A stretch of DNA of 32,000 nucleotides from positions 4,226,768-4,258,767 of the forward strand of contig JAIZWK010000001.1 in the NCBI GenBank assembly GCA_021498095.1. Reading direction: 5' to 3'. The notes beneath the pieces are model-generated. The model saw only the letters and a program-made list of their open reading frames with translations, was not told the origin of the DNA and did no database searches. Source of the DNA: Candidatus Harpocratesius repetitus (lineage in GTDB: Archaea; Asgardarchaeota; Lokiarchaeia; Sigyniarchaeales; Promethearchaeaceae). Position numbers and translations under genes: made by a program. Shown piece after piece: positions 1,957 through 15,015 of the stretch; positions within the stretch are counted from its first letter, which is position 1, and every line of letters begins with the position of its first letter.

Positions 1957-3819
1957 ATGGAAAATTTAGAAAATAAAGCAAATTCTCAGTTTGCAGAAAT
2001 TGGAAGAAAAGATGTAAACCAGTTATTATTTCAAATTTTAGAAACAAAAAGACCCACAGAAATGTTAGAAAGAATCCTTTCTAAAAGTTCTGAACTACTT
2101 CAAGCCGATGCAGCTACAATAGTTTTATGGAAATCAGGTTTGGGGGTCTTTAATACTTTGATAAACATCCCTCCACAAATTCCACTTAAAGGAACATTAT
2201 TAACTCCAGATAAAGGAGGATTAGATGGAAGAATTTTGCGAGAATCCTCAAAAAAATTCATTCAGTTAACAAATTACTCAAAAAATATGGATGCATTTCC
2301 CCCTTTAAAAGAAGCTGGCTTTCAATTCGCGATTGGAGGACGAATAAATATTCAAGATGGGTTAATTCTTGCAACAGTATGCTTCTATTTTTTAAAGCGT
2401 TCAAAAAGATTTAATGAAGAAGAACTAAGAGATTTCCCAATAATTTTATCACAGATTGGAATTGCAATATTGAATGCATATCTTTATCAAAAATTGGAAG
2501 ATATATCTATACTAAATAAAGAAACAACCAATTTTATGGATCTTTTAATTAACTCTACTCCAGATATTATCATCAATACAGATTTGAATGGAAAAATAAA
2601 ATTATGGAATCGATCTGCAGAGGAAATTTTAGGATTTTCATCAAATGAAGTAATGACTGCAAAATTACCTTTGAAAGAAGGAGAAAATGAAGAAAAATTC
2701 TATGTTCTTTTTTCAAAAGCTCGAAAAGGTGAATCAATATTTAATCATGAAATTTTATTCAAAAAGAAAAAAAATAAGAAGAATTCAACGAAAAATATAA
2801 TTGCTAGAATTAATTTATCATTAATTCCTGTATACAATCAACAAGATGTAATTGAATCCATTTTACTTACAGGAAAAGACTTATCAGAAGAACATATATT
2901 GCAAGAAAAGGTAAATAAGATTAATTTTGAACTGAATCAAAAAAATATTGCTTTATTGAAAAAAGAAAAATTACTATATAAAACAAAGAAAGAATTAGAT
3001 ACAGCAGAGAAATTTGCTTCGATAGGGACAATTATTGAAAGACTAAATCACCAAATTAATAACCCTCTAATGGGTCTACTTTCACTCTTATCAATATCTA
3101 TCGAAGATATTAAGGAAATTTCTGAAAGATTTCAAAATAAAAAAGAAAACATACCGAAAATGGTAAAGAATCTCCAAGAATCCTTACTCCCCCAACTTAA
3201 AGATAGTGTTGCACTTGGATATCGAATAAATGAAGTTTTAAAGCACGTTCGTTTTTTTTCAGAAGTTGCTAAAGAAATTCATTTTAGAAAAAGTACTAAT
3301 TTAGTTGAGGTAATTAATCAGACTTTAGATAAATATAAGGAAAAAGAATTTTCAAAACAAATAGAAATTAAAAAGAAAATTGACTTAAAATCAGCTTTAA
3401 TTTATGGAAATTTCAAACAGCTTCAGTTTGTTATTGATTCACTTATTGAAAATGCAATAAAGGCAATAGAATTGAATACAAATTCAAAAAATAAAGGAAT
3501 TATTGAAGTTAATTTAATGGAATATATTGTAAATAAACGAAGATATTATCGTATGGAAATCTCAGATAATGGAATTGGATTAACCCAAGATCAAATAGAA
3601 AATCTTTTTGATCCTTTTTATATTAATTGGCCAGATTGTATCCAAATGACAAAAACACAATCAAAACTACATGTTGGATTAAGTCTTGCAATAGTAAAAC
3701 TAATAATGATTAATCATAACGGGTATATAGATATATTATCCAAAAATATTGATACATATAATTTCACACAAGAAGAAATCAAAGGAACAAAATTTATCTT
3801 GGATTTTCCTAGTTTATAA
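1957..3819 (+). CDS. GAF-PAS sensor histidine kinase
   Basis: GAF-like N-terminus; PAS (PDIIINTDLNGKIKLWNRSAEEILGF); H-box LNHQINNPL; N-box LIENAIKA; G1 SDNGIG; F-box LFDPF; atypical G2 HVGLSL. Confidence 0.9.
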   Translation: MENLENKANSQFAEIGRKDVNQLLFQILETKRPTEMLERILSKSSELLQADAATIVLWKSGLGVFNTLINIPPQIPLKGTLLTPDKGGLDGRILRESSKKFIQLTNYSKNMDAFPPLKEAGFQFAIGGRINIQDGLILATVCFYFLKRSKRFNEEELRDFPIILSQIGIAILNAYLYQKLEDISILNKETTNFMDLLINSTPDIIINTDLNGKIKLWNRSAEEILGFSSNEVMTAKLPLKEGENEEKFYVLFSKARKGESIFNHEILFKKKKNKKNSTKNIIARINLSLIPVYNQQDVIESILLTGKDLSEEHILQEKVNKINFELNQKNIALLKKEKLLYKTKKELDTAEKFASIGTIIERLNHQINNPLMGLLSLLSISIEDIKEISERFQNKKENIPKMVKNLQESLLPQLKDSVALGYRINEVLKHVRFFSEVAKEIHFRKSTNLVEVINQTLDKYKEKEFSKQIEIKKKIDLKSALIYGNFKQLQFVIDSLIENAIKAIELNTNSKNKGIIEVNLMEYIVNKRRYYRMEISDNGIGLTQDQIENLFDPFYINWPDCIQMTKTQSKLHVGLSLAIVKLIMINHNGYIDILSKNIDTYNFTQEEIKGTKFILDFPSL

Positions 3820-3918
3820 TTTAGCTAAAAAGGAGAAGATCTTAAATATTAATAAAATACCAAAGAATATATAGAAGCTTCATCTTGAAAGTTAGGCATT
3901 CTCAAAAGTGATCATACT

Positions 3919-4593
3919 ATGACAGATAAAAAGGGAAAGGCATCAAACATTAATTCTCTTACTCATGAACAAGGAAAAATATTAATAATTGATGATGAGA
4001 TCGCCTTAAGAAAATCATTAAAAAAAATGCTGGAAAGAGCAGGCTTTTACTGTGAAACAGCATTTGATTATTCAAGTGCACAAGAAGCGGTAGAAAATCT
4101 TAATTTCGATTTAATTTTAGTAGATATAATACTACCTGAAATGAATGGGTTATCATTAATTGCAAAACTTCAAGATAAGATAAAAATTTCGAGTGCAATT
4201 ATTTTTGTTACTGGTGAACCTAATTTAGAAACAGCAATGCAAGCTATTAAATTAGGTGCTTATGATTATTTAGAAAAACCCACTCAGCGAACAGTTTTAA
4301 TTGAATCAATAAAGCGAGCACTTTTGCGTAGGGGATATAAACTTAAAGTTGCTGGAGAAGAAATCCAAAAAACAATAAATTTAAATTCAACTATAATAAA
4401 AACCGAAAAATACCAGATGAATGAAGAACTTAAAGAAGAATTTCAAAAATGTGTTAATACGATCCATAATGCACTTCTAGAATTAAAAAAAAAATATGGA
4501 GAAGAATTATCCACTGATCAAAGATTACTTTTAAATCAAATTGCTCAAAGTAATGGAAAATTAAAAAAAACATTAAAAAAAATCACAGAATAA
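3919..4593 (+). CDS. Response regulator (REC domain plus helical C-terminal domain)
   Basis: IIDDE, phospho-acceptor LVDIILPEMNG, VTG and YLEKP; directly downstream of the kinase. Confidence 0.9.
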   Translation: MTDKKGKASNINSLTHEQGKILIIDDEIALRKSLKKMLERAGFYCETAFDYSSAQEAVENLNFDLILVDIILPEMNGLSLIAKLQDKIKISSAIIFVTGEPNLETAMQAIKLGAYDYLEKPTQRTVLIESIKRALLRRGYKLKVAGEEIQKTINLNSTIIKTEKYQMNEELKEEFQKCVNTIHNALLELKKKYGEELSTDQRLLLNQIAQSNGKLKKTLKKITE

Positions 4594-4603
4594 TGAAAAT
4601 TAC

Positions 4604-5154
4604 GACTATTTTTAAGGATAAAGGATCAATTAAGAGAAGCCATATTTTTTAAATTATTCCCAAATTATCTTTCAAATATTTATTTTTGGCAACATAATTG
4701 AAACTTGAAAGCAAAACATACAATATTTTAAAGCTTTTGACAAAGAAAAGCATGGATATGCAAAAATTGATTTTTTTTATAAAACTCTCAAACTAGCAAA
4801 AAATATGCTTTCCGCAGTTACAGTTGCTATCAAGAAAATACAAGACTATGTGTGCAAAAGTTATATCGATTTATCCTGCAGAGAATATGATTAGTGTGAT
4901 TGAGATTCGCGTGTATTTAACTGTTCTTAAAACACATGAAGGCTTAGAACAGTGACTTCGAGTATATATTAAAATCACAAATGAACCCGAAATCTTAGGA
5001 ATAGCCATTGTTCCACACCGATTTAGCCCCAAAATTCTATTCAATGTATAGAACAATTCAATAATTAAACGATTATTTCAATTAAACGAAAAATTGGGGA
5101 AAAAAATTCAAACCGAGGTGTCAATGAATTGATCCTTCGTAATTAAAAATAGCC
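4604..5154 (+). mobile_element. 551-bp non-autonomous TIR element (MITE-like or internally deleted IS)
   Basis: 28-bp imperfect TIRs at 4604-4631 and 5127-5154 (23/28 match), flanked by the perfect 8-bp direct repeat AAAATTAC at 4596-4603 and 5155-5162. Confidence 0.85.
4887..5132 (+). pseudogene. Decayed C-terminal ORF remnant inside the 551-bp element, ending within the right TIR
   Basis: One frame reads ...IVPHRFSPKILFNV*NNSIIKRLFQLNEKLGKKIQTEVSMN* with two internal stops. It is homologous to 11392-11536. Confidence 0.6.
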
Positions 5155-5270
5155 AAAATTACAAATAATTATTTTTTTTATATAATCTCGATTTATCTTC
5201 TACTTATAACAAATGAACAAGATAAAGATTTATTTTGAACGTTCGCTTCATCATAGTGGGAGATACACAG

Positions 5271-7220
5271 ATGTTTAATATAAGACTCAAGCAATTAAAA
5301 AGAAGAATTTATACTTATTATTCACAATTGACAAATCTTTCAATTCAACAATTTGCATCTCAAGTTTTAGCGGAGGTATTTGGAGAAAATTGGGAAAATA
5401 CAGAAGATGTAATCTCACCCATCCAAGATATTTTAATAGTACTGGATCAAATTAATATTTTAGGACAAATTTTCGGGAGAGGTGTCTCTCATATGGCAGT
5501 TGAAGAGCCGCATCATGAAATCTTTTATAAACTCCAATGCTTGTTCAATTTAGGAAAAATATTTATTCAAACTCTCTCTGAAAATGAATGTAATTTTTCA
5601 GATTTTAATCCACGCCAAATTATTCTTTCGGAAGAAAAATTTGAAACACTTCAAAATCAATTGCGTCCCATTAAAAAGAATGAAAACCACAGCCTTACAA
5701 CAATTGAAAGCATCGTTCAATATGTTTTAGATCATGCATTTGAAGAATACAATGAGTTTTGTTCAGTAAACTCTTGGAATGAATTACTTAGTTATATTTT
5801 CCAAGTTGATTTGGAAGATGAAACGAAAGGTGCTAAAAAAATTAAACAAACAAATATTAAAGAATTGCTTCTTTCAGAACAGGTAGAAGGCGCTTTAATC
5901 GAATCAATTTTTCGAAAATATGATGGTTTATTGGCTTATACCATGAGTATGCTTACAATGTTATCAAGTACAAAGTATTCGGAAAAGTATACTCCATATC
6001 TGAACAAAATACTAGAAAAATTAGGCACATCAACTAAAGTAATTCTTTTACAAGGTAGATTGACGAAAGATTTCGAAATTTTGCATGAATTGGAAAAGGA
6101 TATCAGAGATTTACAAACTAAAATTTCAGGAAAGATTAAATCTCTTCAAATAGCAATTAGTGAAAAAAAAATTCAAAATTTCTTTAATTACTTATTACAT
6201 CTTCCAAAATTATCAAAAGAGATGAAATTTCCTGAAAGTTTAGAAGAAGCTCCAGGATTTGAAGAGCTGACAAAAAATGGACGAATCAAGATGATGATGA
6301 ATTCAATAATTCCTAAATGGAGTCATTATAAAGAAATTTTCACCGATATTCGGAATTCTTTGATAAATTTTGATGAATTTTTTGACAAGATGATTAGAGG
6401 AGTTAACGATATCACTGCAGATCTTTTTGCTGAAGGTTTTCAAGCATCTATTCCATTACAAGATGTTGAAACCTGTGAACGGGCAGGAATTCATGTTAAA
6501 AACCTTACAGCAACATTTTCATCTCAGAAAACTCAGATTTCAGACGAAGATTTTGATATAAAACAAAAATTACTGCGAAAATTTGAAGATATGTTGCACG
6601 ATTTACAAACAATTCTACGTCAAAAAACTACAGAAGAAGAAGCAATTAAAGTAGAGCCTCAAATTTTTACACCACTATTAAATATAATTTCTGGTCTTTA
6701 CACTCAATGGACGGAAAACAAAGTTTTGTCCGCTTTTAAAGAAGAAGCAATCATGGTTTCTCGTTATTTACAGTCAATCTTAAATATAATTGAAAGTATA
6801 TACAAGAAAATTAAACCTTTTGAGAAAAAATTCCTTAATCGAGAGAATATCAAGAATTTACAAGTAGAACATGAATACTATATGGATAAAATGAGCGAAA
6901 TAATGATGATTTTGAAAGTATCATTATTCACTAACGATTTAACAAAAAATATATGGCATTTGTCTCGTGATTATGTATTGAAAATTGGAAAAAATGCAAA
7001 ATATATAATCAATCCAGATGAAATTAGCAAATTAATCAGCGATATGCCCAAAACATTGAAACGAGAATATATGCAACGTTTAATAACACAAGAACAAAGA
7101 AAGGAGAAGATGAAATATTATTCGAAAGTTAATGAAATCATAGAAAATTTGAAAAATATTCCACTTTCTGAAAGAGAATTGTTGATACCATATGAAGAAA
7201 TCAAAAAAATGATTAAATAA
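5271..7220 (+). CDS. Large hypothetical, predicted all-helical protein (about 649 aa)
   Basis: Long uninterrupted ORF; ATG at 5271 preferred over TTG at 5235; rich in E/K/I/L; no motif recognised. Confidence 0.75.
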   Translation: MFNIRLKQLKRRIYTYYSQLTNLSIQQFASQVLAEVFGENWENTEDVISPIQDILIVLDQINILGQIFGRGVSHMAVEEPHHEIFYKLQCLFNLGKIFIQTLSENECNFSDFNPRQIILSEEKFETLQNQLRPIKKNENHSLTTIESIVQYVLDHAFEEYNEFCSVNSWNELLSYIFQVDLEDETKGAKKIKQTNIKELLLSEQVEGALIESIFRKYDGLLAYTMSMLTMLSSTKYSEKYTPYLNKILEKLGTSTKVILLQGRLTKDFEILHELEKDIRDLQTKISGKIKSLQIAISEKKIQNFFNYLLHLPKLSKEMKFPESLEEAPGFEELTKNGRIKMMMNSIIPKWSHYKEIFTDIRNSLINFDEFFDKMIRGVNDITADLFAEGFQASIPLQDVETCERAGIHVKNLTATFSSQKTQISDEDFDIKQKLLRKFEDMLHDLQTILRQKTTEEEAIKVEPQIFTPLLNIISGLYTQWTENKVLSAFKEEAIMVSRYLQSILNIIESIYKKIKPFEKKFLNRENIKNLQVEHEYYMDKMSEIMMILKVSLFTNDLTKNIWHLSRDYVLKIGKNAKYIINPDEISKLISDMPKTLKREYMQRLITQEQRKEKMKYYSKVNEIIENLKNIPLSERELLIPYEEIKKMIK

Positions 7221-7245: not shown

Positions 7246-8004
7246 TTAACGCTTATTTTTGGTTCTTTTTTTGGTTTTTGAAATTCTTGAATCATTTTTC
7301 TGAATTTTCTTTTCACAATTCTTTTCAATTGGGCAGATATCACATAGAGGGTTAATAGGCTTACAAATATTTTTACCAAAACTCACCATAGTGTAATTAA
7401 TTCGCATCCATTCCTCTTTTGGAAATAGTTTCTCCAAAGCATGCTCTGTTTTTTCTGGAGTTTTTGTTTCAACCCAACCGATCCTATTTGCAATTCTGTG
7501 CACATGTGTGTCAACAGGAATTGCAGGCTTATTGAAAGAAACAACCAGAACGCAATTTGCTACCTTTCTTCCTACTCCTGGTAATTGAACTAATAGGGAA
7601 AGATCATCCGGTACTTTATCATTATATTTTTCATGAATAATTCGAGCCGTTTCTTTTATTCTTTTAGCCTTTTGTTTGTATGTCCCACTACTGTGTATTA
7701 ATTCTTCAATGTGTTCAATTGGAGCCTCTGCAAGATCCTTGGGTGTTGAATAATGTTGCCAAAGATTTTCAATCACTTTAATGGTCGTTTCATCACGGCT
7801 TCTTACTGATAAAATTGTGGCAACTAAAGTTTTAAATGCATAAGGTTTTCGAATTTCAGAAGAATTGAACTGATAATTTTTAGGATCCGGCTGTAATTGT
7901 TCCAAAAGTAGAGAATATCCCTTAATTGTATCAAACATTTTATGAAGCATTTCCACTCGACATTTTTCATCTTTACACGAGATTATGCTTCCTTTATTCT
8001 TCAT
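7246..8004 (-). CDS. nth: Endonuclease III (HhH-GPD DNA glycosylase/AP lyase with 4Fe-4S cluster)
   Basis: LVATILS; HhH LPGVGRKVAN with catalytic Lys; PVDTHVHRI with catalytic Asp; C-x6-C-x2-C-x5-C. ATG at 8004 preferred as start. Confidence 0.92.
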   Translation of the reverse strand: MKNKGSIISCKDEKCRVEMLHKMFDTIKGYSLLLEQLQPDPKNYQFNSSEIRKPYAFKTLVATILSVRSRDETTIKVIENLWQHYSTPKDLAEAPIEHIEELIHSSGTYKQKAKRIKETARIIHEKYNDKVPDDLSLLVQLPGVGRKVANCVLVVSFNKPAIPVDTHVHRIANRIGWVETKTPEKTEHALEKLFPKEEWMRINYTMVSFGKNICKPINPLCDICPIEKNCEKKIQKNDSRISKTKKRTKNKR

Positions 8005-8181
8005 ACGTATAGAAAGCACTGAAAATAGAAAAAGATAATAATTAGTAGTTATAAGCGCACCGATCAAAAATCGAATAATTAAGAAGAAAAAGGGTTATTT
8101 TTAAAGATGAAGGATCAATTAGGAGAACTATTCCATAAATAACTATTTCTTTTGGAGCAGAATGAAGAAGAGAATGAAAAA

Positions 8182-8850
8182 CAGTTCCCAACTATTCGAC
8201 AAAAATATTAAATCAGAAATAAGCTCTCTTATCTAGTGTTTGCATCAACAAGAATAAAAGAAAAGAAAAGGATGCCTTCATTATCATAGAGCGATGATTC
8301 ATGGACTATATAAATCTTTTTTTGTAGGATATCATCATGTGGCAAAAGAAGAATCTAAAATTCCATATATGCTTGATATTACTGATTGGTTAATAAATTT
8401 GGGAGTAGAAATCAAAGTTTGTGTGATTGATCGTGAATACTACCTTCAAAATATTTTAAAATCATATAAAAATCTGGGAATTCCTGTAATCACACCTGCA
8501 AAAAACTACAAACAACTTAAAAAAGCAAAAAAAGAGTATATTTTAGGAAATAAAGAGAGGATTCAAGCCTTCACAATAAGAAGTAAGAATAGAACGAACC
8601 AAAAGCGAAAATTTACACGTTGCTGGGTCCATTTATTTCCTCGAGGAAAACAGAATCTAAATGATTTGAAATACGCCTATCGACAAGGATGACTAAGTTT
8701 AAATGAAATGTGTGAATAATTATATGGTTTAATTACTAGTATTCCACAATAATATCGCTTAAAGTCTTTCGTGTACCTATTCAAGCAATATTACAAAATG
8801 AGATGCAAATTGAGACAACTTTTCGTGATATAAGCACAAATAAAATCCTT
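8182..8850 (+). pseudogene. ISH3/IS4-like transposase pseudogene A (5'-truncated)
   Basis: VCVIDREYY motif; in-frame stops at 8690, 8717 and 8750; then KSFVYLFKQYYKMR-(1-nt deletion)-QIETTFRD, homologous to the ORF at 1-261. Candidate left TIR cagttcccaa at 8182. Confidence 0.8.
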
Positions 8851-9910
8851 CAGCCATGGATTCTTCATTTACAAAATAAAATATCCGCTGTAGAAGAGGC
8901 AAAGTGTCAAGTTGAAATAATTGAAGCCGATAGGGGTTATTATAACTCTGAATTTTTTGCACATTCTTATTTAGGAAAGATGCGGGGGTTTGACGTACCG
9001 TCTGAGCTTATCCGCTGTAATGTACCAACTAAATTTACTGCAGGGAAAAAAGAGTCTATATGGAATTTTCTGATTGATGACAAATTTAAGCAAGTTTCTC
9101 TACATTCTATGCAGATAAACCATTATTGTCCAATGAATCTTCGAGATTTATGCCGTAAATATAATGTTCCTTATGAAGATGGATATTATAAGATTCCTGT
9201 TGCCCAGGTTGTTTTAGTAGATGAATATCAAAAAGGAAAATCCAGATCATTTGAATCTATAAAAAATGAAGCTTTTTTAATCCAAAATAAAGTTCTTTCT
9301 ATTCAGGAGCAGTTAAAACTTGTTGAAGATGAGTATTTCAAATTCCAACAAGCGACTAAAAAAAATCCGCACCGACTCAAATACAGGAAAGCCAAACGAC
9401 GGAAAAAATTCAGCAATAGCGTGGAAGAACGACTTTATTGTCTCCATTATTCACTCTATGATCACAAAATTCGTTTGGAAGAGAAAAAAAAATAAATTAA
9501 TTCATGTTGTCACCTTCTTTACCATCTCAACTGCACCCGGAGAAGATCCTACTAAGTTAAACGGAAAATTTATCAAATTTGCAAGGGATTATCATGAACG
9601 ATGGCGGATTGAAAAAGGTTTTCGAGATACTAAATACCAATTTTTATATAAGAGTCGTTCCCAAAAATCTACATGACGACAATTTTATTGGATCGCAGGA
9701 TTAGAATTGTATAATCAATGATAGCGACATAAACTGCTGGATCTTTTAGTACAAGAACAGAGTAGCGTCCACAATATTGTTCCGTGGAATTCTCGATGTC
9801 GACATATCCGAAAAAAATTAAAGAAAAAAAGACGTACAAAATGGTCTGCCAAGTATTATTTGCTACGTTTATGGGAAACTGGACTTAATTTATGGCTAAA
9901 TCAATTTTAG
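8851..9910 (+). pseudogene. IS4-superfamily (DDE_Tnp_1-like) transposase pseudogene B, fused to remnant A
   Basis: IEADRGYY; frameshift in the A9 run at about 9484-9492; YHERWRIEKGF; several stops after 9673; last frame ends LWLNQF* at 9910. The junction position is approximate. Confidence 0.75.
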
Positions 9911-9956
9911 ATGCAGAAGATAAAAGTTAAAAAGTGAAAAAATAAAAATAATGAAT

Positions 9957-10004
9957 CCGTTCACGAAACCATTCACGAAAACGTTCGAGAAACTGTTCAT
10001 GAAA
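9957..10004. repeat. Four tandem 12-bp units with TTC-N2-GAA palindromic cores
   Basis: ccgttcacgaaa / ccattcacgaaa / acgttcgagaaa / ctgttcatgaaa. Confidence 0.8.
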
Positions 10005-10006
10005 AA

Positions 10007-10231
10007 ATGAGCCTAATTATTTACGCTAAACCGCTTAATCTTGAAGAAAATCAAGAAATTAATGAATTATATGCCCACTTGGTAAAATTAGCCGGCGCCA
10101 TCAAATTTACAAGAAAACTTTCTGCTCTAAAAGAAATATTTATTTATGGATTGTTGATCAAGTTGTTGATCGGATCTCTAATCATTTTCGAGATACTAAA
10201 AGGATCAGACATCATGACAACCTATCTTTGA
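10007..10231 (+). CDS. Small hypothetical ORF or gene remnant (74 aa)
   Basis: ORF only; no recognised motif; lies inside the mobile element. Confidence 0.25.
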   Translation: MSLIIYAKPLNLEENQEINELYAHLVKLAGAIKFTRKLSALKEIFIYGLLIKLLIGSLIIFEILKGSDIMTTYL

Positions 10232-10311
10232 TTTCAAGATGCGCGAGTATAGTATAAAAAATCGTCTGTGGAAAGTTTTTTTTTAATCTTCCAATTATTT
10301 TCATTATAATA

Positions 10312-11337
10312 ATGAATCTTTACAAATTGATAAAATCTAATTTAGAAAAAGAAAAAATCCTAGAATTTATTAAGAAAGAATTGGAAATTGGTTTTGATGT
10401 TAGGGCCGATATTAAGTATGCCTTAAGTTGTGCTGCTAAAAATGGACGTTTAGATGTGATTGAATTTTTGCTGGAGCGCAGTGCGGATGTTCATACCGAT
10501 ATAGATCGTGCCTTACAATTGGCTGTCGAATGGGGGGATTTAGATGTGGTTAAATTTTTGGTCGAAAATGGTGCGGATGTTCATGCCGATGATGATTATG
10601 CCTTAAGGCGTGCTGCTGAAGATGGGTGTTTGGAAATGGTTGAATTTTTGGTAGAAAGTGGTGCAGATATTCATGCCGATGATGATTATGCCTTAAGATA
10701 TGCTGCTAAAGGAGGGATTGTGGACGTGGTTAAATTTTTGGTCGAAAATGGTGCGGATATTCATGCCGATAATGATTATGCCTTAAGAATGGGCCTTTTT
10801 CATGAACATTGGAATATTGTTAAATTTTTGGTAGAAAGTGGTGCGGATATTCATGCCGATGATGATTATGCCTTAAGGCGTGCTGCTGAAGATGGGTGTT
10901 TGGAAATGGTTGAATTTTTGGTCGAAAATGGTGCGGATATTCATGCCGATAATGATTATGCCTTAAGGCGAGCTGCTAAAGGAGGGAATGTGGACGTGGT
11001 TAAATTTTTGGTCGAAAATGGTGCGGATATTCATGCCGATAATGATTATGCCTTAAGAATGGGCGTTTTTCTTGAACATTGGAATATGGTTAAATTTTTG
11101 GTAGAAAGTGGTGCGGATATTCATGCCGATGATGATTATGCCCTAAAGTACACTGCCAAAGGATGGTATGTGGACGTGGCCATATTTTTGGTCGAAAATG
11201 GTGCAGATATTAGTGCAATAAAAGAATATAAAGCAATCCTCAGTCAGCTTCGCAAAATATTCGAAAATAAGGGTGATCACAGCAATTTATTAGAAAAAAT
11301 CAACCAATATTTAAAAATTAATAAAATTATCCTTTAA
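10312..11337 (+). CDS. Ankyrin-repeat protein with short 30-aa repeats
   Basis: About 9 repeats of the type ADIHADDDYALRxAAxxGxxxVVKFLVExG on a 90-bp period; intact ORF. Confidence 0.92.
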   Translation: MNLYKLIKSNLEKEKILEFIKKELEIGFDVRADIKYALSCAAKNGRLDVIEFLLERSADVHTDIDRALQLAVEWGDLDVVKFLVENGADVHADDDYALRRAAEDGCLEMVEFLVESGADIHADDDYALRYAAKGGIVDVVKFLVENGADIHADNDYALRMGLFHEHWNIVKFLVESGADIHADDDYALRRAAEDGCLEMVEFLVENGADIHADNDYALRRAAKGGNVDVVKFLVENGADIHADNDYALRMGVFLEHWNMVKFLVESGADIHADDDYALKYTAKGWYVDVAIFLVENGADISAIKEYKAILSQLRKIFENKGDHSNLLEKINQYLKINKIIL

Positions 11338-11391
11338 AACCACCTCAATTAAATAAATTACAATACCAGCAATAATTCCAATCGATATTTG

Positions 11392-11536
11392 CCAATCTTT
11401 GAAAATACAATTGTAACGCATCGATTTAGCCCAAAAATACTCTTTAATGAATGGAATAATTCAGGAATTTGACGAATTTATCAATTACACAAAATTTCGG
11501 AGAAAAAAATATAAAACCGAAGTGTCTGTGAATTGA
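11392..11536 (+). pseudogene. C-terminal ORF remnant at the right end of the 3.47-kb element
   Basis: IVTHRFSPKILFNEWNNSGI*RIYQL...TEVSVN*, homologous to about 4989-5132; the stop lies inside the TIR. Confidence 0.6.
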
Positions 11537-11604
11537 TCCTTCGTCATTAAAAATCGCTAGAAAAAGAAATATTTTTAGAATTTTTTGATAAAATATTCAA
11601 TACT

Positions 11605-12591
11605 ATGAAAAAATGGGGAAGAATAGCATTAATATTTTTTATATTAGTTATCTTGGGTGGAGCTGGTACTTATATATATCTTTTCGATATTTTTGCACCC
11701 AAATCGCAAATATCACAAGCGAGCTTTACCATTAACGGTCAGAACGTGAGTGATTTCTGCTATTTACTTCAATATAACAAGTATAATTCAGCAGAGGATG
11801 CAATCACACAAATGAGCGATACAGAATATGATCTTTTTGTTATTGATATGTATTTTGATGAAAATCCGTGGAGTACAGAACAAATCAGCAATTTAAAAGA
11901 ATCTTTAAGTGAAAATCAAGAACGAATTGTTCTTTGTTATATCTCGATCGGAGAAGCTGAATCCTATCGCCCATATTGGAATGCTTCATGGGATGCAGAT
12001 GAAGATGGAATTCCAGATGATGGTGCACCATCATGGCTGGATCAAGAAAATCCTGACTGGGAAGGCAATTACAAAGTAAGATATTGGGATCCTACATGGC
12101 AAACACTTATTTTTGGAACAAATACTTCATATTTAGATCAAATTATTAATATTGGATTTGATGGAGCTTATTTAGATATTATTGATGCTTTTGAGTATTA
12201 TGAAGAACAAGGCATAGAAGATGCCGCAGAAAGGATGGTGGATTTTGTGACGAATTTATCTTCATATTGTAAAGCGATTAACCCCGAATTTTTAATTGTT
12301 CCGCAAAATGGTGAATATTTAGGTAATTTTGCTAATTACTTAGACGCAATAGACGGTATTGGAAGGGAAGACGTATTTTTTACAGGAAACAGAAGAAATT
12401 CAGCAAGTACAGTCAATGAAACAACTTCCAATTTAGCTTTATTCTTGGAAAAAGGTTGCTTTGTTCTTAATATTGAATATCCCAGTTTTCCAGTATACAT
12501 CAGAAATTCTTATGAATTGGGTGCTCAATATGGATATATTACATATGTTGGACCGCGTGAACTTGATGAAATAGCCTATTATCAAAGATAA
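11605..12591 (+). CDS. MJ1477/TM1410-type putative glycoside hydrolase (GH114/PelA-like endo-alpha-1,4-polygalactosaminidase fold), N-terminally membrane-anchored or secreted
   Basis: CYISIGEAESYRPYW, ENPDWEGNYKVRYWDPTWQ, GFDGAYLD, PQNG and DGIGREDVF; hydrophobic N-terminal segment after KKWGR. Confidence 0.85.
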   Translation: MKKWGRIALIFFILVILGGAGTYIYLFDIFAPKSQISQASFTINGQNVSDFCYLLQYNKYNSAEDAITQMSDTEYDLFVIDMYFDENPWSTEQISNLKESLSENQERIVLCYISIGEAESYRPYWNASWDADEDGIPDDGAPSWLDQENPDWEGNYKVRYWDPTWQTLIFGTNTSYLDQIINIGFDGAYLDIIDAFEYYEEQGIEDAAERMVDFVTNLSSYCKAINPEFLIVPQNGEYLGNFANYLDAIDGIGREDVFFTGNRRNSASTVNETTSNLALFLEKGCFVLNIEYPSFPVYIRNSYELGAQYGYITYVGPRELDEIAYYQR

Positions 12592-12689
12592 AATAGAAAC
12601 TTATCAAATTTTTTGCGATTACAGTTGTTAATACATGCTTTTCATATTAATTCATGAAATTCATTAAATATTTTTCCTTTTTTTTTCTT

Positions 12690-13526
12690 GTGAAGAAAAA
12701 ATTTGTATTAAGTGATCTTGATGGAACCTTATTAGACGAACCAAATGGATTAAGTTTTGAAAATTTGACTAGATTGAACAAATTAATTGATTCGGGTCTT
12801 CAGTTTTCCATTGCCACTGGTCGAGATCTAAAAAAGGCAAAAAAGGTCTTAGCTGGTGTACATTTAAAATATCCTGTAATATTAAATAATGGCGCTTTTT
12901 TAGGAAATTTAAAAACGGGTGAATTTTCTAAAATCACCACTATACCCCGAGAAATCTTTTCCACAATTTTTTCTTGGAGTGAAATGATAAAGTTAAAACC
13001 TATTGTTATGATTAGTTTTGACCAAATAAATAAGAAAGTTAAAATGGAAAAGGGGACATGGGGAAAAAAAGGTATTAAATATCTAACCCAAGATCAAATT
13101 GATAATTTAATTTCGCAAGATATTGTTAGTCTCCAATTTCATGCCCAAAAAGATGATCTTTTCCCTTTTTATCAAAAAATTCTGCAAGAATTTCCTGATC
13201 AAATAAAAATAGTATTTATCGAAGATGTTGGTTATAAAAAACTAAATATTAACGGAGAATGGTTTTGGTTAGAAATTAATGGCCCTAAAGCGGGAAAAGG
13301 AAACATGATGAAAGAATTAGCCATGATGTTCCAATACAAACTTGAAGATTTTGTTGTATTTGGGGATAATATTAATGATCTTGAACTTATGCAAATGGCA
13401 GGACTTAGTGTGGCTGTTGAAGATGCACAACCTGAAATAAAGGAAATTGCAGATGTCATTACTGAAAGCTCAAACAATATGGGTGTGGTTAAATTTATCG
13501 AAAAAAATATTGATGAATTTATTTAG
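12690..13526 (+). CDS. Cof-type HAD-IIB hydrolase
   Basis: DLDGTLL, ATGR, GKG and GDNINDLELM; GTG at 12690 preferred as start. Confidence 0.9.
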   Translation: MKKKFVLSDLDGTLLDEPNGLSFENLTRLNKLIDSGLQFSIATGRDLKKAKKVLAGVHLKYPVILNNGAFLGNLKTGEFSKITTIPREIFSTIFSWSEMIKLKPIVMISFDQINKKVKMEKGTWGKKGIKYLTQDQIDNLISQDIVSLQFHAQKDDLFPFYQKILQEFPDQIKIVFIEDVGYKKLNINGEWFWLEINGPKAGKGNMMKELAMMFQYKLEDFVVFGDNINDLELMQMAGLSVAVEDAQPEIKEIADVITESSNNMGVVKFIEKNIDEFI

Positions 13527-15015
13527 CTTCTTTTGTTGATTCAATTATTTTTTCAGAAAAATTATCTGGGCTACGCAATCGAGCTAAAATATCATCTAAA
13601 CTCTCACCTTCAATTTCTAATGCGATAGTTTTACCATCTGTTTGAACTTTCACAGGAGAATCATCAATATCTGTAATCTTTGGAATATTCCTAACAGATA
13701 TTTTCATATTTTTTGAAATGAGTTTTTCAATTATTTCTTCACCTGATAAATTCCCAATTTCTTGAATTGGAATTGAGTTCAATTCTTCATCAAATTCTTC
13801 ACCGGAAAGAATTCCGCGATACAACAACCCTTGTTGATGAATTTTTTTCTTAATTTCATCAGATGTAAGATCACCACCTACTTTCCCTTCAGATATTTCT
13901 CCCAATCCGTGCATAAGTTCTTGTAAATCAGAAATGATTTCTTCACTTATTTCAGAATTCTTCAATAATAGTATTTCTTGTTCCATTATTCGCGCTTTTT
14001 TAATACGTTCTTCAATATTTGGAATCTGAGCTAAAATTTCAAGTTGTTTACGTCTTTCATTTAAAAGAGATTCTCGTTCTTGCTGCTTAGCAATTTTGAT
14101 TTCGTCATAATGATCTTTAAAATATGTAATACTATAATTAATTAAATCTGCGACATCTCTCCATTCATTTTTTTGAACAAGACTTTCAATCCATAAAAGT
14201 AAATGACGCTTTATTGGAACAGTAATGAGTTTATGGTCGCGAGATACATGTTTTTCAGTATCAGGTGGTTCTAGCAGCCATTTAAAGATATTTGCAATAA
14301 AATCTTGGTTATTTAGGGCAAAAAAACCATATGCAGAAGAAAGAGAAGAGAGCATGGATACAGTAGGTAGTCCAATCACACGACCTTTATAGACTTTAGA
14401 GTAAATTGCCATAATTGATTTCCAGGCATCAACATCTTCAACCCATTCACCATCTATCCATTCAGTACTATAAGCATTAATACTTGATCGTGCTAGAGGT
14501 ATTACGTCTATATTTAGATCAGCAGCGATTAACTGATCGATTTCAATTGAACAAGCACTCGATAGTACAATAGAAGATATATTCCGGGTTGTTGGATGAG
14601 GCTCAAAATCACTGATAATTACTCTCGATTCTTGTCTTTGAAAGTGAACTGAATCATATATAATATTATTTTTATATTTAAAACCAAAAAATTGAGTTAA
14701 TTCTGATAAATTTGAATCTGTTCCAAAATCTCCACCTTCATCATGGAAAATTAATAGATTACCACCTTTACGAACGTACTCTACTAATACTTTTATCTCA
14801 TCTGAACTAAATTTCGATTCCCTAGGTCCACCAATAACCACTAATCGATATTTCTTTAATTTCTTAATATTTGTAAAACCTGCTTGAATTTTTCCTAATC
14901 TAAAGGATGAAGAAAAGAGAAATTGAGTAAAATCTGCATTACTGGGAGATTCAATGGTTAAAGTATTTTGATGGCTGTAATCAAAGCATATCGTATTTTC
15001 TAAAATATTAGGCAT
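13519..15015 (-). CDS. GIFT (GldG/IFT52-like, DUF4350-related) domain plus ribbon-helix-helix-like segment and coiled coil
   Basis: LVVIGGPRESKFSSDEIKVLVEYVRKGGNLLIFHDEGG...SNLSEL...NIFKWLL, then an RHH-like ITVPIKRHLLLWIESLVQKNEWRDVADLINYSI and a charged helical tail. Confidence 0.7.
   Translation of the reverse strand: MPNILENTICFDYSHQNTLTIESPSNADFTQFLFSSSFRLGKIQAGFTNIKKLKKYRLVVIGGPRESKFSSDEIKVLVEYVRKGGNLLIFHDEGGDFGTDSNLSELTQFFGFKYKNNIIYDSVHFQRQESRVIISDFEPHPTTRNISSIVLSSACSIEIDQLIAADLNIDVIPLARSSINAYSTEWIDGEWVEDVDAWKSIMAIYSKVYKGRVIGLPTVSMLSSLSSAYGFFALNNQDFIANIFKWLLEPPDTEKHVSRDHKLITVPIKRHLLLWIESLVQKNEWRDVADLINYSITYFKDHYDEIKIAKQQERESLLNERRKQLEILAQIPNIEERIKKARIMEQEILLLKNSEISEEIISDLQELMHGLGEISEGKVGGDLTSDEIKKKIHQQGLLYRGILSGEEFDEELNSIPIQEIGNLSGEEIIEKLISKNMKISVRNIPKITDIDDSPVKVQTDGKTIALEIEGESLDDILARLRSPDNFSEKIIESTKEAK

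Follow-up and report, generated by a model that had tools for sequence, protein, structure and literature searches.

The 32,000-nucleotide stretch of Candidatus Harpocratesius repetitus DNA analysed here (GenBank assembly GCA_021498095.1, contig JAIZWK010000001.1, positions 4,226,768 to 4,258,767; hereafter the window, numbered from its first letter) carries between two divergent genes a 3466-bp unit that has the ends of an insertion sequence (IS) and encloses an intact ankyrin-repeat gene. To its left lies nth, coding for an HhH-GPD endonuclease III-like protein (7246-8067, minus strand, by Pfam; likely start Met 8004), and to its right a GH114-family gene (11605-12591, plus strand, assigned from Pfam and from orthologues). 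Direct reading of the sequence from 7900 to 11800 places the inverted ends of the unit at 8093-8120 (left) and 11531-11558 (right), immediately flanked by a perfect 8-bp target site duplication (TSD), AGAAAAAG, at 8085-8092 and 11559-11566. An initial annotation, made from the letters alone, had recognised 28-bp terminal inverted repeats (TIRs), the perfect duplication and the 3466 bp that they enclose. This delimitation is borne out, with the precision that the TIRs are imperfect, 22 of their 28 positions being complementary (92% over a 24-nt core). Each of the two matches the TIRs of a 1593-bp IS of the same genome at 25 of 28 positions. The TIR core occurs four times in the window, against zero expected from shuffled sequences. 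The other two occurrences bound a 551-bp miniature inverted-repeat transposable element (MITE) at 4604-5154 (plus strand; TSD AAAATTAC), recognised from TIR pairs and family alignment, which is the second of the two family members that had been announced for the window.

DNA derived from this family is confined to the extremities of the unit, whose parts all read on the plus strand unless stated otherwise. BLAST homology to the 1593-bp IS and to the MITEs is restricted to 8096-8127 and 11394-11558. On the left, judging from an alignment of the left ends, it probably continues in diverged form to about 8177, the left end (8093-8177) comprising the TIR and then a diverged subterminal region as far as an inserted fragment of another IS. 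The right end (11394-11558) corresponds to IS positions 1430-1593, is 83.5% identical to the autonomous copy and retains the last ~50 codons of the cognate transposase, decayed, which are all that the unit keeps of this gene. Family-derived DNA thus amounts to about 86 bp on the left and 165 bp on the right. Since the MITEs break at other IS positions (128 and 1163) than the unit does (about 86 and 1430), the unit is a derivative independent of them.

Next to the left end come fragments of two other IS. The first (8178-8836, 91% identity to resident copies) belongs to IS-X, a 1450-bp IS with the TIR CAGTTCTCAA, present in about nine genome copies and unrelated to the TIR family. It keeps IS-X positions 1-90 and 610-1187, with an internal deletion of ~520 bp and a truncated 3' end, and its ORF (open reading frame) 8294-8692 contains a DDE_Tnp_1 piece detected by Pfam. 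The second (8832-9949) comes from IS-Y, an IS of 2013 bp whose 584-aa transposase is ISH3/IS4-like (NCBIfam ISH3). This fragment is the 3' 1.1 kb, IS-Y positions 895-2013, through the right terminus, with 92% identity to the copy at genome 1590133-1592145, and its reading frame is broken (ORFs 8803-9495 and 9320-9676). The claim that every transposase inside the unit is broken therefore holds for these fragments. It fails as far as they were taken for relics of the element's own enzyme, because they are debris of unrelated IS4/ISH3-like elements. For the same reason an IS4/ISH3 (DDE_Tnp_1) type was rejected for the element itself, the DDE_Tnp_1 pieces belonging to IS-X and IS-Y, two elements with separate ends and with further copies elsewhere. 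A third DDE_Tnp_1 relic had been suspected near 10185. Its sole basis was an exact 16-nt repeat of 9619-9634, and tblastx found nothing there. We also discarded a compound structure bounded by IS-X around the ankyrin gene, the right end of IS-X being absent downstream of the gene. The 6-bp AATGAA that flanks the IS-X/IS-Y block on both sides was judged to be chance, since its two termini do not form an inverted repeat.

The remainder of the interior directly adjoins the right terminus of IS-Y (9949/9950). This passenger segment must therefore once have flanked an IS-Y insertion. It contains the 3' fragment of a genus-specific gene for a 203-210-aa protein (9998-10165, identified by homology to the orthologue of a congener) and then the ankyrin gene (10312-11337; Pfam Ank_2, E 3e-52). 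The initial annotation had singled out the latter as the one clearly intact gene, and its 341-aa ORF of about ten 30-residue repeats confirms this. A 56-bp spacer (11338-11393) separates it from the right end. The internal junctions are deletion or IS-terminus junctions of ordinary kinds. The interior also contains two short repeats. An inverted 31-nt copy (29/31) of the left subterminal stretch 8132-8162 is found at 10120-10150 on the minus strand, the sole such match in the genome (E 2.6e-6), and the exact 16-nt direct repeat of 9619-9634, in the IS-Y fragment, falls at 10185-10200, upstream of the ankyrin gene. Both may be templated filler at rearrangement junctions.

When the unit is removed together with one copy of the TSD, a spacer of 88 + 38 = 126 bp remains between the GH114 gene and nth (counted from Met 8004), which agrees with the divergent spacer of about 126 bp estimated initially. 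Two congeners display such an arrangement. In G005 (contig C90) the GH114 gene (12590-13540) and nth (13618-14394) are divergent neighbours with continuous sequence between them, and in G006 (contig C91) they are again divergent neighbours (GH114 3745-4728, nth 4966-5724). The order HAD-GH114-nth is kept in both genomes, and in each of them this place is free of ankyrin genes and of IS ends. The whole unit is thus an insertion in the Harpocratesius repetitus lineage. A comparison of nth-GH114 adjacency in relatives had been proposed, with an ankyrin gene at this locus lacking TIRs as the outcome contrary to a transposon; the adjacency was found in these two congeners and such a gene was not found there. 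In the genome of another genus, a beta-lactamase-like gene lies between nth and GH114.

The parent family and its transposase

The genome consists of a single 4,361,485-bp contig with 31% G+C, in which the TIR core has ~70 occurrences. They form 31 inward-facing pairs: 20 of 549-552 bp, which are the MITEs (IS positions 1-128 joined to 1163-1593), seven of 1592-1612 bp, and one each of 845, 1994, 2380 and 3466 bp. A perfect 8-bp repeat flanks 25 of the 31 pairs and a 7/8 match two more, while the chance of an 8/8 match at this spacing in this genome is 7e-5. The proposal that the unit is a non-autonomous member of a family with such TIRs and 8-bp TSDs is well founded in these numbers. The genome-wide collection of TIR pairs had also been meant to catalogue cargo, and no other cargo-bearing member appeared among the 31 pairs and the 8 solo ends inspected, the solo ends being truncated copies. 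The odd-size pairs of 845, 1994 and 2380 bp are MITEs with a nested IS. Among 161 genomes of the class the TIR pattern is essentially confined to this one, metagenome-assembled genomes being prone to lose repeats. Scans of public collections with the element-specific left end returned three metagenome matches, none of them with the rest of the TIR, and 23 genome matches, which lie in unrelated bacteria and are about as numerous as chance predicts.

The 25 perfect duplications are rich in A and T and approach a palindrome, with a purine or C in first place, A-A-A-A/T-T-T after it and a variable base last, which suggests that the family has a target preference.

The autonomous partner, placed outside the window by the initial annotation and predicted to carry an ORF ending in TEVSxN, exists elsewhere in the genome. 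Four intact 1593-bp copies (genome 2844825-2846417, and at 1484883, 2063713 and 2091946) contain an intact ORF of 460 aa (463 aa from a GTG) that ends in NQTEVSVN. As these four copies encode an intact transposase, we consider that the missing partner has been found. This protein has more than 200 homologues of 440-470 aa, whose named sources are all Lokiarchaeia, Promethearchaeota or 'Ca. Harpocratesius sp.'. It is made up of a zinc ribbon, a helix-turn-helix region and a DDE (Asp-Asp-Glu) domain. In an alignment of 17 transposase sequences the invariant residues include the CPxC...C...C of the zinc ribbon, D162 (in DET), D221 (in DAW) and E381 (in NNLAEN), with 59 residues from the first to the second D and 160 from the second D to the E. 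The latter interval is lengthened by an insertion of about 125 residues, in which a basic AT-hook-like stretch (KKRGRPKG / KRGRKG) is found. The AlphaFold model (predicted local distance difference test score 79) is composed of an RNase H-like core, a beta-rich insertion and a disordered AT-hook loop, and its best matches among solved structures are the ISCth4 transposase and retroviral integrases. Searching the sequences of the Protein Data Bank gave no hit with the single sequence and only a marginal match to the HMG-I/Y AT-hook with a profile.

Members of the IS6/IS26 family generate 8-bp TSDs, have short ends often starting with GG and encode a single DDE transposase, to which the longer members add a zinc finger at the N-terminus (PMC7986276). 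The Asgard family shares the 8-bp TSD, the GG-type ends, the zinc finger and the ~59 residues between the first and second D (PMC7986276). It differs in its 1593-bp length, in the 160 residues with AT-hooks between second D and E, against ~35 in IS6/IS26, and in its profile score, the genome's transposase copy reaching 16.8 bits against the NCBIfam IS6 model NF033587, whose cut-off is 125. This copy had no significant Pfam match and none to PF13610. Among the 17 relatives, NF033587 was matched by all 17 (best E 6.8e-9) and PF13610 DDE_Tnp_IS240 by 15 (best E 2.6e-7), consistently yet far below the curated cut-offs in every case. The ISL3 family would fit by TSD length and protein size; its matches were weaker and fewer than those to IS6 (NF033550 in 11 of 17, best E 4e-6; PF01610 in 5 of 17). 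With the IS1595 models of Pfam and NCBIfam, none of the 17 relatives gave a match at E <= 0.01. The suggestions of an IS1595, IS256 or IS4 affiliation made from the window are therefore not supported, the cognate transposase matching IS6/IS240 weakly and IS1595 not at all. IS6 membership itself is favoured by the 8-bp TSD and opposed by the second DDE spacing and by the curated models, none of which is reached. On sequence grounds the transposase would best be described as a distant, long relative of IS6, lying under every family threshold.

How the ankyrin gene came to lie between the ends

We favour, with a probability of roughly 0.6, the view that the unit is a non-autonomous, passenger-carrying derivative of the 1593-bp IS and that the ankyrin gene was carried in between its ends. 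The parent IS, which is active in this genome and makes 8-bp target duplications, would have had its transposase gene replaced by the IS4/ISH3-like debris, the gene fragment and the ankyrin gene. At the time of transposition into the nth/GH114 spacer, by the unit itself or by a larger composite precursor of it, the ankyrin gene would already have had its place between the ends, and the family transposase would have had to be supplied in trans. The likeliest route would start from a locus with a family copy on either side; deletions would then fuse IS-X to IS-Y and the region downstream of the ankyrin gene to IS position 1430. In such a precursor, usual IS insertions and deletions would suffice to generate all of the internal junctions. 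A composite precursor of this kind is possible; the present unit does not have the structure of a composite transposon, possessing one left and one right end, each internally truncated. No resident copy exceeds 83% identity to the ends, whereas the nearest neighbours of other members are 92-100% identical. As the TSD is nonetheless still 8/8, this suggests that the ends had diverged before the present insertion took place.

The passenger is unique in its genome. Whole-genome tblastn detected no ankyrin paralogue at E <0.1, which makes this gene the sole one of its kind there, and blastn and tblastn with the interior and the ankyrin protein found no second copy of 9950-11393. In a protein search of 5.8 billion sequences the best outside homologues were 49-51% identical; the two best of them come from unrelated low-GC organisms, where they lie on ordinary contigs and have no transposase as a neighbour. 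A DNA search of 14 genomes of the family retrieved only a larger paralogous ankyrin gene of G006. It occupies another locus, which is syntenic but in Harpocratesius repetitus is devoid of an ankyrin gene. The gene fragment 9998-10165 is 55% identical to the G006 orthologue, compared with 44%, over a shorter span, to the genome's own copy (genome 1418993-1419625). The passenger being unique and the fragment nearer to the orthologue of another species, the segment was not copied from a surviving resident locus.

Several observations weigh against a mobile cassette that arrived with its cargo. The unit has no second site, donor locus or close passenger in this genome, among the 161 class members or in protein databases. 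The IS-X and IS-Y fragments are nearest to the copies of this genome (91-92% identity, against 86% in G006), so that the interior, at least partly, arose within this lineage and possibly in place. The ends are diverged, and the right end terminates in A instead of the family's G. As to the empty site, the spacer of G006 contains a run of ~100 N (4786-4885) with one and the same 55-bp sequence on either side, which leaves G005 as the only clean case; the run is probably an unmerged scaffold overlap and not hidden sequence. Moreover, both congeners are distant (58-62% identity for GH114), and the insertion is consequently dated only loosely.

The main rival is remodelling in place, in which an ordinary autonomous IS copy inserted between nth and GH114 and gave rise to the duplication, IS-X and IS-Y became nested in it, the transposase gene was deleted and the segment with the gene fragment and the ankyrin gene came later, the latter gene never being moved by the TIRs. 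A circular intermediate made of IS-Y and its flank could have recombined with the nested IS-Y, followed by deletion. Such a history would accord with the passenger segment beginning exactly at the right terminus of IS-Y, with the resident affinity of the IS-X and IS-Y fragments, with the nested IS in the 845-, 1994- and 2380-bp pairs, such hits into family members being common in this genome, and with the single copy. We hold it to be a possible but somewhat unlikely course of events, since non-mobile DNA must then have entered a resident IS through at least one junction without homology (ankyrin downstream region/IS 1430), the genome retains no donor of the segment, and the ends have diverged by 17% from the family without any change in the 16 nt of the duplication. 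Two independent family insertions on either side of an ankyrin gene already resident between nth and GH114 might be imagined in a genome littered with these elements, the more so as both ends are truncated derivatives. The identical outer 8-mer, however, is as expected from one event and has the 7e-5 probability of arising by chance, the ends face inward as one left and one right end, and the congeners have nth and GH114 adjacent without the ankyrin gene; the shared 8-mer and the empty site in effect exclude this scenario, which we regard as extremely improbable.

An artefact of assembly, by which repeats gave a chimeric join, deserves mention because the region is rich in repeats and short-read contigs do break within the IS-X and IS-Y fragments. 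Independent assembly of a public run, probably the source sample of the genome, nevertheless gave contigs that bridge with 0-1 differences the left junction with nth (7600-8411), the junction from IS-Y through the gene fragment into the ankyrin gene (9848-10575) and that from the ankyrin gene through the right end to GH114 (11113-12100). Misassembly, raised at the outset as an objection, is thus very unlikely, and the check is answered as far as contigs go. Among the contigs of runs X1 and X2, none spans the whole 3466-bp unit and none carries a joint that skips the element. Returning to the cassette reading, of the initial statement that a transposon "has mobilised" an ankyrin gene the insertion with the gene inside is confirmed, and the movement of the gene is an inference; the unit is single-copy, and a second site, a donor locus or an empty-site read was not found.

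Two features of the passenger are worth recording. The ankyrin gene includes a tandem 270-bp duplication of three repeats (10544-11083, 94% identity), whose units differ at thirteen codons, nine non-synonymous and four synonymous, mostly at positions that vary between repeats. The acidic 203-210-aa protein (genome 1418993-1419625; G006 contig C40 1129-1740) appears to be restricted to the genus, and its gene always adjoins one for a 440-449-aa membrane-transporter-like protein. The fragment in the transposon is the 3' piece of a second, diverged copy of this gene.

Relation to known mobile elements

Mobile insertion cassettes (MICs), a category of ISfinder, have the TIRs of an IS family and a flanking target duplication, lack the cognate transposase, contain at least one passenger gene and are presumed to be mobilised in trans. 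One of them, MIC231 of the Bacillus cereus group, goes back to IS231 of the IS4 family; it is found in Firmicutes, in several copies whose cargo varies. The term mobile insertion cassette is found in PMC2266710 and PMC6542083. By its structure the 3466-bp unit corresponds to this definition: IS-family ends, a TSD, loss of the cognate transposase and an intact passenger gene. It is distinguished from MIC231 by an IS6-like parent, by its Asgard archaeal host, by its single copy and by an interior much of which is debris of other IS. As to its movement as a cassette, the site empty in two congeners stands against a single copy anywhere searched and no empty-site joint among the contigs covering the region. 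In the Pack-MULE and Pack-TIR elements of plants, the ends of DNA transposons enclose captured host genes and gene fragments in a mosaic interior and are mobilised in trans. Pack-MULEs are eukaryotic, of Mutator type and present in hundreds to thousands of copies, unlike the present unit, and the resemblance is one of analogy.

Within the IS6 family, the existing review describes a long zinc-finger clade h, two MITEs and one passenger-carrying member, ISDsp3 (PMC7986276). For Asgard archaea, integrated non-viral elements with cargo comprise the aloposons of Heimdallarchaeia (PMC8813620) and IS-like elements of Atabeyarchaeia (PMC11529989), aloposons being, according to the latter study, the only such elements previously reported in this group. 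Large size, integration at tRNA genes and giant proteins set aloposons entirely apart from a 3.5-kb element of a DDE insertion sequence with TIRs and TSD. Beyond aloposons and a few IS-like elements, this literature contains nothing of the passenger-carrying IS kind (PMC8813620, PMC11529989), and a 2026 survey of archaeal IS does not treat such an element (PMC13343696).

The locus therefore offers a cleanly delimited case, with family, autonomous partner, target duplication and empty site all documented, in which an accessory ankyrin-repeat gene would, on the reading that we favour, have reached its present place inside a transposon. The IS family is also experimentally tractable, thanks to four intact transposases, 20 MITEs and defined 28-bp ends. 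As passenger-carrying IS derivatives are well known in bacteria, its value is that of a catalogue entry and a test system, not of a new principle. We put forward only tentatively the wider notion that this uncharacterised Asgard IS family, distantly like IS6 and with AT-hooks in its catalytic domain, can capture chromosomal genes and move them as Pack-MULE-like cassettes, of which the ankyrin cassette, mobilisable by the four resident transposases, would be the first example caught. If so, transposons would allow Lokiarchaeia to shuffle repeat-protein genes, of the kind counted among the eukaryotic signature proteins, and to spread them horizontally.

Nested and rearranged family members

Some other members of the family have themselves been invaded. 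The MITE at genome 3910766-3912759 holds a 1448-bp copy of IS-X2, and those at 2232791-2235170 and 1493385-1494229 carry related inserts (a 496-aa ORF and ~295 bp) at the same MITE position. Copies without matching duplications or with one end lost were seen at genome 512265-512815, 1965998-1966548 and 2464413-2466024, and solo ends at 1277359, 1594349-1594498, 1877443, 3084881, 3364563 and 3918042. Such missing duplications and lost ends are signs of IS-mediated rearrangements. The MITE at 512265 abuts an IS-Y fragment (512828-513165).

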